Origin: Perna viridis
Lineage: Eukaryota
Direction of reading: 5' to 3'
Length of the DNA: 64,000 nt
NCBI GenBank assembly: GCA_037379345.1
Contig: CM074519.1
Location: 34,684,103-34,748,102, forward strand
Shown: positions 2,301-7,122 of the stretch, in pieces
How positions within the stretch are numbered: position 1 is the stretch's first letter
How the letters are laid out: each line of letters starts with the position of its first letter
Position numbers and translations under genes: made by a program
The notes under the pieces: generated by a model
The model's input: only the letters and a program-made list of their open reading frames with translations
The model's database searches: none
What the model was told of the DNA's origin: nothing

Positions 2301-2537
2301 GATATTGGAAAATATATGTATGCAGCTTTGGTAGAATTTATGGATCAGACGTAGATGAAGGAATAAAGAACCTCTGTGTTGAAAGTCAGTTGCACGATAT
2401 TGGTAGTAGACAAAATGCTTTCCACTGTTTACATTCACGTGAACTTAGTCATGATGAATACTACGTATTTAGAGTATGTCCGAGCCTGCATGGGTATCAC
2501 AGGAAACGTACGTTACAGCGACATCTTTACCACTACT

Positions 2538-2989
2538 GGCACGAGACCGCAATTAATTTAAAAAGTGCATTTCAATATACATATTTGAGCAGATTAAAAA
2601 AATTCCACGGGTGCAAACTGAATAAAACTTCTCTGGCCTAAAGATAAGTACAAACAGGATTTTATATATAAATTGTAGAAAATTTTACCATCATTTTCTG
2701 AAATTAATACATATAATTCGGAGATGAGGTAAACATGACAAATGAACTGAGTTAAAAGTCCTAAATTTTAACCTTCTTCCACTGAACCAAATCACAACTT
2801 TTAGTCAGAATTTATTAATGAAGAAAAAACCCATGTAATTTTAACCAATTTTCTACCAATTAGAGGCAAAACTTCAGCAAATAAGTTTCCAGTAAAAATA
2901 TGAAAAAATGTGGAAGGTGCCTACTACTAAAGTTGGAACTATATTCGTATACAACGAAAACGAAGGGGAATTAATTGTGTTCTCGTACC
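2538..2989. mobile_element. MITE copy A (about 452 bp)
   Basis: TIRs GGCACGAGACCGCAATTAATT / AATTAATTGTGTTCTCGTACC; nearly identical to 4289-4739. Confidence 0.9.
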
Positions 2990-4288
2990 TATTAGATCAA
3001 TAAATGTGCCCAATTTGAATAAAAACTGCACTCATGTCAAAATGAACCTTTTTTGACTTCAAGTACAAAGTTTCATCATGATTAGTTGAAAAATATATAA
3101 GTTATAGCAAATTTAGTATCAGTGGTACATTGCATGACTCGCATGTCCAATGGTCGAAGAAAATAAGGCCCCTCTAAAATGTACATTTTTTTTTTAAAAT
3201 GCAATATTTTTGTGATTTTTACATTGGTTGCATCATATTATGTGTATTTGATGCAATGAAGATCAGTTTACTCAAGTTCCAGCTGCTTTAAGGCCAAAAA
3301 TTGGGTTTTTATACATGCGGCCATGGTCAATGCACTTTTAGACCATGTATAGGGGTACACATATGAAAACTCATTTTATGATGCTGACAATGACTTAAAT
3401 TGATCAACTTCAAACATAAAGTGGTCTACACATATCAAATGTACATTGAAAACAATAAGAAGTGGTTTCAAAGCTAAAACTGTCACTCTAGATCAATTTA
3501 AACCAGACCTGTACAGAGCTTGTTCAAGTGCGATTGTGTCCGATATTAAAAGTTAGCCTTTATTTGGGTTTTGAATGATGAAAGATCTGAAACAAATGTA
3601 AAATAACGTAAGGTTCCAAGCTTATCAGGTACATAAGCAGACAGTCAGCTGTATTTTTCCAGTTTTTCTACAAAAAATTTCATTTTTGAAACCTTATAGT
3701 GTATGCGGAACTCTAAAATTAGGTGTTTTTGAGACATCACAAGGTATTTACATGTAGTGACTTACATTAGATGCATGAATATCAATGGAATGAATATATT
3801 AGGTTTTTTTCACATTATTTATATTATTTACTAGCAAATACAAAAGATTCAGACCAATAAAACACATATCTGTGATTTCATAGATCCTAAGACAAGGCTG
3901 TGAAAACCCCTGATTTTGCCATATTTCATTGACTCGGTTCATAAAAATTACACTGAATTGTCAGATTTCTGCCTACACCTTGTTCATAAAGTATGTTTAT
4001 TTGTTGATTTGAAGTTCCTAGTGTATAGTTAGAGGAGAAAAACTCAAAGCTGTACAATATTTTCCCCACTGGTCTATATTTCATACCTAGCACCTTAGCA
4101 AAAGTGCAATTTCAATGGAAAATCCCATAGAAACCATATTTTTTATTTTAATTTCTGAAAATAGCGAATAATGGGCCAAAATCTTATTATTTCATGCAGA
4201 TTTACTGAATTCTTGAAAATAAACACCAAATTACCCCCAGCAAATACTAGCAAGTACAATTTCTGATACCCAGGCAACCCCCTTATTA

Positions 4289-4739
4289 GGCACGAGACCA
4301 CAATTAATTTTCAAGTGCATTTCAATATACACATTTGAGCAGATTAAAAAAATTCCACCAGTGTAAACTGAATAAAACTTCTTTGGCCTAAAGATATGTA
4401 CAAACAGGATTTTATATATAAATTGTAGAAAATTTTACCATCATTTTCTGAAATTAATACATATAATTCGGAGATGAGGTAAACATGACAAATGAACTGA
4501 GTTAAAAGTCCTAAATTTTAACCTTCTTCCACTGAACCAAATCACAACTTTTAGTCAGAATTTATTAATGAAAAAAAATCCCATGTAATTTTAACCAATT
4601 TTCTACCAATTAGAGGCAAAACTTCAGCAAATACGTTTCCAGTAAAAATATGAAAAAATTTGGAAGGTACCTACTACCAAAGTTGGAACTATATTCGTAT
4701 ACAACGAAAACCAAGAGGAATCAATTGTGTTCTTGTACC
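4289..4739. mobile_element. MITE copy B (about 451 bp), direct repeat of copy A
   Basis: Same TIRs and interior as 2538-2989. Confidence 0.9.
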
Positions 4740-5175
4740 TACTGATTGACCACACTCCCCCAGTAATACATAAACATCATCCTGTTACAGAACATGTTGC
4801 ACCATTAGGTGAAGATGTGGATTATATTACATCTAATACTACTATCTATGGCCGCTGGGATAGTGCTTTCTCAGATGATGAAAGTAGCACTATTGAATAT
4901 ATTGTGGCACAGTAAAAATTTTGCCGAGAGGAGCGAGGCAAACAATTTGTTGAGGTTAAATTTTGAAACATTCTTCTACAGTGAGTGAAATGTGGATATC
5001 TTTTGAGGTAAAATTAGGAAGAAATTAAAGTTTCAACTTAAAAGCGCCAAAATCTACTCTTGACAAACCCATGTTTTGCAAATTTAAGGGGGGGGGGTGC
5101 ATGCCATCATACCCCGCCTGAATCCGCTGCGAATATTAACAATGAATAAGAGAATAGGATAATGAATCTATCTAC

Positions 5176-6394: not shown

Positions 6395-7122
6395 CATGAA
6401 GTTACATGTATTGTTGCGCTATGCACATACCCTCACTCGTACATAAAGTTAATATAGGAGAGCAACCAAAATCACTTACAATAGATGGCTTACCTACATG
6501 AAGCCACACACCAAATTTGAAATCAATCAATATGTTTGAAACCTAGATGTTTATGATGAAAATTTTCTTTTGCTATTCCATATAGTAAAAAAAGACGAAG
6601 TCCCATGAAACAGGAAGTTGATAGCAGACAGCAAAAAAATTGCTTATAAAATATGCCTCATCTACATGTATATGAAGCCACACACCAAATTCGAGATCAA
6701 TCCAGCCATTAGGAGCTGAGATTTTTGTGACAAAAATTTTTCTATTCTTCCATATACTGAAAAATGGCAAAGTTCCACAAAACAGGGAGATAGTATAGGA
6801 GAGCATTACAAGATATGCACTATCTATATGATGCCACACACCAAATTTGATATCAATCCTTTCATTGGGAGCCGAGAAATTTCTCTATCATTCCACAGAG
6901 TGAAAAATGGCAAAGTTCCACAAAAATGGAAGTTGATATTGGAGAGCAACAGAAACTGCTTACAACATATGCCCCATCTACATAAGGCCACACAATAAAT
7001 TTAAAATGAATCCATCCATTGGGAGCTGAGAAAATTGCGACAAAAAATTTGGACAAATGGAATGACAGACGGACAAGGGTATTACAATATACCAACTACT
7101 CGTTGACTGGGGGTATAATAAA
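6395..7122 (+). mobile_element. HINE-like element with tandem core repeats (related partial copy at about 12480-12860)
   Basis: Repeated gccacacaccaaatttgaaatcaatc...ggagctgag core; gacagacggac tract; 3' stem ending ggggtataa. Confidence 0.6.

Follow-up and report, generated by a model that had tools for sequence, protein, structure and literature searches.

The question raised by this locus was whether a 2.2-kb block of Perna viridis DNA, in which two direct repeats with inverted ends of their own enclose a middle segment, had been inserted as a single unit, and what that middle segment was. The block occupies 2534..4743 of the window, i.e., the whole stretch of 64,000 nucleotides that was analysed (assembly GCA_037379345.1, contig CM074519.1, positions 34,684,103 to 34,748,102 of the forward strand); the genome searched was the 723-Mb assembly of 46 contigs. 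We consider the block to be best explained, at a probability of about 0.9, as a non-autonomous KolobokP unit that lies between TACT copies in a decayed exon, likely owes its mobility to the transposase of a related autonomous family in this genome, and bears in each repeat a conserved box that is likely cut by the family's His-Me nuclease.

Direct sequence comparison placed the duplicated target site TACT at 2534..2537 and 4740..4743 of the plus strand, solely outside the 2.2-kb block as a whole. Between these sites, all in plus orientation, were found a 5' long terminal direct repeat (LTDR A, 2538..2989, 452 bp) with its own imperfect 21-bp inverted ends (2538-2558 and 2969-2989), a non-coding interior (INT, 2990..4288, 1,299 bp) with TATTA at both tips (2990-2994 and 4284-4288), and a 3' repeat (LTDR B, 4289..4739, 451 bp) likewise bounded by its own inverted ends. 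LTDR A and B were identical at 432 of 451 aligned bases. By this comparison, the repeat coordinates of the original prediction and its restriction of TACT to the outer ends of the block were confirmed. No long open reading frame was detected in the 1,299-bp interior, and tblastn of the window copy gave no transposase or nuclease match, neither protein being encoded. In passages of Kojima and Bao (2022, PMC9587614), the KolobokP layout is given as a repeat of about 450 bp that is itself bounded by inverted ends (11-18 bp in the text, up to 25 in Table S1), RR..YY termini and a 3-5-bp duplication outside the unit. The window element agreed with this layout in repeat length (452/451 bp), GG..CC ends and 4-bp duplication, and is almost certainly a non-autonomous KolobokP monomer of the form LTDR-INT-LTDR, a placement that rests on architecture, on the domain pair of its relatives and on likeness of terminal sequence.

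Elsewhere in the genome, the left flank of the block matched three stretches (L107, L108 and L109), all on the contig of the window. In 3/3, left flank passed straight into right flank, reading TSLPLLIDHTPP, TSLPLRIDHTPP and TSLPLLIDHTAP, and the frame TSLPL(L/R)IDHT(P/A)P was retained. Since all three paralogues were uninterrupted and contained none of the 2.2 kb, the block was inserted as a whole; the proposal that the outer inverted repeats mediated a single insertion, with 4 bp of target duplicated, and with it the look of a composite transposon, is thereby borne out. The anticipated empty sites were thus found, without the middle segment as well, in paralogous exons rather than as a true empty allele of the locus. 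Removal of the block and one TACT does give TSLPLLIDHTPP, as had been claimed; the restored frame is open in the window copy only from ~2476 due to two extra 4-bp frameshifting insertions upstream of the element (2466-2469 and 2484-2487). These two insertions could be footprints of earlier elements with 4-bp duplications.

Homology to the paralogues was limited to 2324-4910 (element included), leaving a 385-bp orphan piece that derives from a large exon of a local gene family and is split into a left part (2324..2537, plus strand) and a right part (4744..4910, plus strand). Judged from its sequence, this host DNA is a decayed exon fragment and not an intact gene, and, as an orphan fragment with two upstream frameshifts, it demonstrates no disruption of a working gene. 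The host exon gave weak fibronectin-III-like Pfam matches below threshold, and no Pfam match was obtained for 2198-2536 of the window. Upstream, at 2198-2323, an open frame with a GDELHYVLTC stretch (no match in Pfam) was observed, a stretch that we take to recall the 3' end of a non-LTR retrotransposon. Elsewhere in the window were noted the exons of a gene for a very large Ig- or cadherin-like protein (~5245-56500, minus strand), which belongs to the local family from which the interrupted fragment also comes, and an AT-rich inverted-repeat element with 21-bp inner units plus two short arrays of ~150-170-bp units (275-1214, 1364-1805 and 6476-7050).

An empty allele was also sought in assembled contigs from 5 of 12 public runs. 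A contig piece of run X5 joined host flank to repeat. In run X2, no flank-repeat piece was found, and the locus-specific flank joined a 43-nt piece that continued like the empty site at a depth of 14.2 (~10.5 + 4.1). This empty-like sequence is explained as well by the nearby paralogue L109, and the absent piece proves nothing. For pieces across the two 4-bp insertions, no gaps were listed in the run contigs, a result that suggests that both insertions are common to the sampled alleles.

A first look at the genome gave 1,410 candidates for the repeat and 761 for the middle (40 scored each), and the middle was found between repeats at many loci with 96-97% identity. The suggested search of 2990-4288 for a donor with the same junctions therefore did recover this middle between repeats elsewhere, as part of one fixed family and not as host cargo. 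Monomers with the same interior and a 4-bp duplication of their own were L126, L129, L131, L135, L138, L140, L205 and L206. Another 83 left ends, picked by an exact pattern preceded by C, G or T and so biased against duplications ending in A, comprised 53 solo repeats and 3 monomers with a perfect 4-bp duplication, 11 insertions with an imperfect one and 16 without a far end in the stretch examined. The length of the duplication, which was to be read from other copies, was thus settled by a perfect 4-bp duplication in 56/67 copies with both ends in hand. The commonest duplication was TGAT (14/48), followed by AGAT and TGCT, with the reverse complements among those ending in A; the target duplications of the family are non-random. 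KolobokP target sites are described as having no strong preference in passages of PMC9587614.

Between single duplications were found arrays of 71 kb on C1 (CTCA; 22 repeat and 48 interior matches), of 15 repeats on C5 (ATCA) and of 3 repeats on C7 (TGCA). By exact patterns, interior-interior junctions that share one 5-bp TATTA numbered 374 in the genome versus 163 repeat-to-TATT junctions. Two satellites consisted of interiors only, with 74 full interiors over 97 kb (C9:13818083-13915293) and 36 full interiors (C6:8009877-8058151), and no repeat inside either one. Their units were 1.29 kb, and one TATTA was kept at each junction read (stretches L157-L162, L167, L168, L173, L180, L185 and L193-L199). 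The genome thus held the further KolobokP features of solos, (LTDR-INT)n-LTDR multimers, INT-INT junctions and autonomous relatives such as L124 with transposase and His-Me frames. Several side observations were made. An array near C1:0.58-0.61 Mb carried a 471-bp insert in every unit. A solo of the autonomous family with a TCCA duplication directly abutted a solo of the non-autonomous family (L156, C15:757469-760495). In a minority of insertions of both families (L137, L139/L147, L075, L123/L149, L148, L150, L151, L154 and L155), the right end was separated from the host by TATT or TATTA, after which a duplication of 4 to ~17 bp sometimes came; the TATT/TATTA may be a spacer carried from an array or a circle.

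Autonomous relatives were reached through a His-Me family search of the genome. An intact autonomous KolobokP family (L124 and others) had 452-bp repeats with nearly the same inverted ends as the window element, and the L124 repeat was 62% identical to that of the window by blastn (302 identities in global alignment). The L124 interior read TATTAGAT..TATTA and contained two open frames: one of 696 residues, which matched the transposase PF20700 (E 4.8e-59), and an antisense one of 160 residues, on the minus strand at L124:4356-4835, which matched the His-Me family PF05551 (E 5.8e-14). The latter aligned over 42 residues to the catalytic stretch of I-PpoI (E 0.0014) and carried SHLCHNT..C..H..E....N. 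A second autonomous KolobokP family (L236-L243 and L285-L294) had 460-bp repeats and a different His-Me protein. With the intact L124, the window interior had no similarity (score 17; shuffles up to 19-20). In a broken sister family (L296-L298), the 5' non-coding leader aligned with 984 bp of the window interior (~3247-4230), with 609 identities, 332 mismatches and a local score of 114 versus a shuffle maximum of 19 for L298. This homology suggests that the supposed cargo is the element's own leader, left after gene loss. Among 30 His-Me loci and 16, 20 and 11 genome stretches, no autonomous element was found with repeats closer than ~62%, and the helper is therefore a candidate only.

Broken copies of the family repeatedly ended near repeat position 410, and indels and breaks were mapped for this reason. 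Copies were chosen by their left end only, and indels of at least 2 bp, breaks and truncations were scored. In the discovery set, positions 408-414 were touched in 25/43 copies, compared to a maximum of 3 for intervals of the same width elsewhere and of 11 in 5,000 permutation runs. In a held-out set fetched afterwards, which included 9 copies of one unscarred segmental duplicate, the same positions were touched in 19/40 copies (maximum of 4 elsewhere; permutation maximum of 10 in 5,000 runs). When 10 copies with duplicated flanks were merged and only breakpoints were counted, 39/73 insertions hit 406-416, and other 11-bp intervals had a mean of 1.52 and a maximum of 4. The sequences beyond the breaks differ, and the hotspot is therefore not explained by a site-specific insert.

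The scars were mostly distinct from one another and included deletions in either direction, insertions of 2 bp ahead of TATA and truncations; in L071, TATA was duplicated with filler, and L049 had gained 390 bp. A single insertion present in three duplicated flanks (L067, L211 and L254) had three different scars, which reveals that breaks post-dated insertion and occurred more than once. Large deletions that joined the interior to the last 27-41 bp of the repeat (L066, L128, L141, L142, L152, L165 and the C1 and C9 array ends) terminated at 412-426. In the autonomous family, which is younger, a deletion of at least 2 bp was found at the same spot in 5/23 copies; in the second autonomous family, with its other nuclease, 3/10 copies had events near 405-415, inside a loose 15-bp inverted repeat. 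Six scars were one and the same 8-bp deletion between two TATA copies, for which slippage could be an alternative source; twelve other short direct repeats within the repeat gave 1 matching deletion in total.

The hotspot fell in a 26-bp box that was identical between the window family and the autonomous family and had 472 exact matches in the genome. Among matches to the box motif in the supplement of PMC9587614, 12/12 lay near the 3' end of an LTDR record and had a variable 4-bp centre. Both boxes of the window copy were intact despite the 19/451 differences between its repeats (2935..2960 in LTDR A, with its central TATA at 2948-2951, and 4685..4710 in LTDR B, with TATA at 4698-4701, both on the plus strand), and each is a candidate nuclease site based on the scars of other copies, the identity with the autonomous family and the presence of the motif in the 12 published LTDRs. 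The box is palindromic about TATA for 6 bp only, and the centre of a looser inverted repeat of 15 bp lies 1.5 bp from that point. According to passages of PMC9587614 and PMC11325842, I-PpoI cuts a 15-bp semi-palindromic site to leave 4-nt 3' TTAA overhangs and binds palindromic DNA as a dimer.

From the distribution of scars, the hotspot likely marks a candidate homing-type cut site of the family's His-Me nuclease. Alternatively, the DDE transposase could nick the repeat where it binds near the end, or a host enzyme or a fragile DNA structure could be responsible, an explanation that we regard as possible though less likely. Transposase binding sites are common at subterminal positions such as that of the box, 30-55 bp from the right end; the conservation of the box suits a binding site equally, and in the second family no clear hotspot emerged from the 10 copies scored. 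The intact boxes of the window copy, the short symmetry about TATA and the 8-bp deletion open to slippage also weigh against a cut site. By contrast, the centring of scars on one 4-bp core, with small insertions, duplication of TATA in L071, the 390-bp insertion in L049 and deletions in both directions, is what a fixed staggered break is expected to leave; the other short direct repeats hardly ever yielded matching deletions, and no pile-up of breaks was detected at the inverted ends within the intervals scored. We thus favor, with moderate confidence, an element-encoded I-PpoI-like His-Me nuclease as the cutter of the box.

The history of the window copy was examined by comparison of its repeats to those of other copies. 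LTDR A departed from the family majority by 14 changes and LTDR B by 13, with 19 differences between the two, and in a tree of 33 repeats they were sisters (support 0.885) with 2 shared changes found in no other copy. In the youngest monomers and one trimer the repeats were identical (0 of 451 differ), and in older monomers they had 10-14 differences. A two-step origin, in which a solo repeat was inserted with duplication of TACT and a circle of repeat plus interior then recombined into it (model b1 of PMC9587614), is improbable. Solos are the commonest form, with a clean duplication at 53/83 left ends, the TACT duplication would survive recombination with a circle, and the 19 differences between A and B are unlike the identical repeats of the youngest monomers. 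However, the sisterhood of A and B and their private shared changes favor insertion in one step, and the assembly held no circle-type junction of right end, TATTA and left end; the sole match for abutted right and left ends (spacer of up to 8 bp) had TCCA as its spacer. The original prediction had, for its alternative, taken the shared TATTA to fit a circular intermediate; this sequence proved to be the constant tip of the interior in both the window family and the autonomous family and is thus not a circle trace specific to the locus.

The original proposal, a composite transposon formed by two independent MITEs around 1.3 kb of captured host DNA, is very improbable: each repeat does have its own inverted ends, and solos with their own duplications exist, but one and the same middle belongs invariably to a large family at many loci, is missing from all three paralogues with an empty site and has its homologue in the non-coding leader of an autonomous KolobokP. 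That the block is a TRIM-like element or another non-autonomous LTR retrotransposon is least probable of all, for although long direct repeats, solos and tandem arrays are known in TRIMs as well (as noted in passages of PMC9587614), the window ends are GG..CC with 21-bp inverted repeats and not TG..CA, the proteins of relatives with these ends are a DDE transposase and a His-Me nuclease and not a reverse transcriptase, and interior-interior junctions lose one repeat precisely.

Taken together, we propose that a non-autonomous KolobokP unit, whose interior would have arisen when an autonomous KolobokP lost its coding part, was inserted at this locus by a DDE transposase that would have acted in trans on the outer inverted repeats. 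The hotspot would reflect repeated site-specific double-strand breaks, for which a 4-nt stagger across TATA is the best fit, with the element-encoded I-PpoI-like nuclease as the putative cutter. Breaks mended by homology would give rise to arrays and solos, and breaks joined by their ends to scars; arrays from which a repeat and one TATTA were excised would, once amplified, yield the interior-only satellites. Stated in full, our proposal, which we hold to be reasonably probable, is that the His-Me nuclease of KolobokP is active, is of the homing type and would cleave KolobokP itself, at G^TATA^C within the GAACTAYATTYG-TNNA-CMACGA box, 40 bp from the right end of the repeat, that self-cutting may drive the formation of arrays, solos and 100-kb interior satellites, and that the half of dispersed copies scarred like edited loci may be its fossil record. 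In passages of PMC9587614, a homing site inside the LTDR is merely not excluded, and a nuclease cut there is proposed to lead to unequal crossover, with no site named; the KolobokP nuclease model awaits confirmation according to a passage of a 2026 review (PMC13565253). No report of the cut site was found in the open-access literature searched, the box and the scars are not mentioned in the searched passages of the main text and supplement 2 of PMC9587614, and Kolobok is not mentioned in those of PMC12628747. Now that the candidate site is mapped to 26 bp and the same genome is seen to hold an intact frame of 160 residues, the model is reduced to a test of one enzyme and one oligonucleotide. 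If the proposal is true, a eukaryotic DNA transposon breaks its own ends to multiply, and a direct route leads from transposon to satellite DNA.

As a type, the element is nothing unusual in bivalves; what is new is the map of scars across the family. In its 2.2-kb LTDR-INT-LTDR form, ~450-bp repeat, 4-bp duplication, solos, multimers and INT-INT junctions, the window element resembles non-autonomous KolobokP elements listed in passages of PMC9587614, such as KolobokP-N5_CGi (1,738 bp; LTDR 445; TSD 4) and KolobokP-3N1_LiLo (2,232 bp; LTDR 467; TSD 4), and its own family sequence was absent from the searched passages of the supplements. It differs from the published elements in its INT runs of 74 and 36 units, compared to (INT)4 as the longest listed there, and in the excess of INT-INT over LTDR-INT junctions (374 to 163) with the whole 5-bp TATTA kept. 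Kolobok-labelled satellites of 2,414 bp are listed for Pacific oyster in a passage of PMC8268682, and tandem Kolobok repeats are therefore not new; interior-only KolobokP runs of the present length were not found in the passages of literature examined. Compared by eye, KolobokP-3_MoPh of the mytilid lineage (supplement 3 of PMC9587614, in part) has a 451-bp LTDR with the same start and end and a box equally far from the end; unlike the window element, it and the mytilid box-bearing families seen there are autonomous and belong to other species. The small open frame of L124 shares its catalytic stretch with the His-Cys box homing endonuclease I-PpoI (PDB 1a73, 1evw), and the scars fit a 4-nt TATA stagger; unlike the site of I-PpoI, the putative KolobokP site is inside the element's own repeat and not at an empty allele. 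As in IS26-type composite and pseudo-composite transposons of bacteria, the mobile unit comprises two direct repeats, each bounded by ends of its own, together with the DNA that they enclose, but here the repeats encode nothing, and the interior carries no passenger gene and is the element's own, inherited within its lineage.
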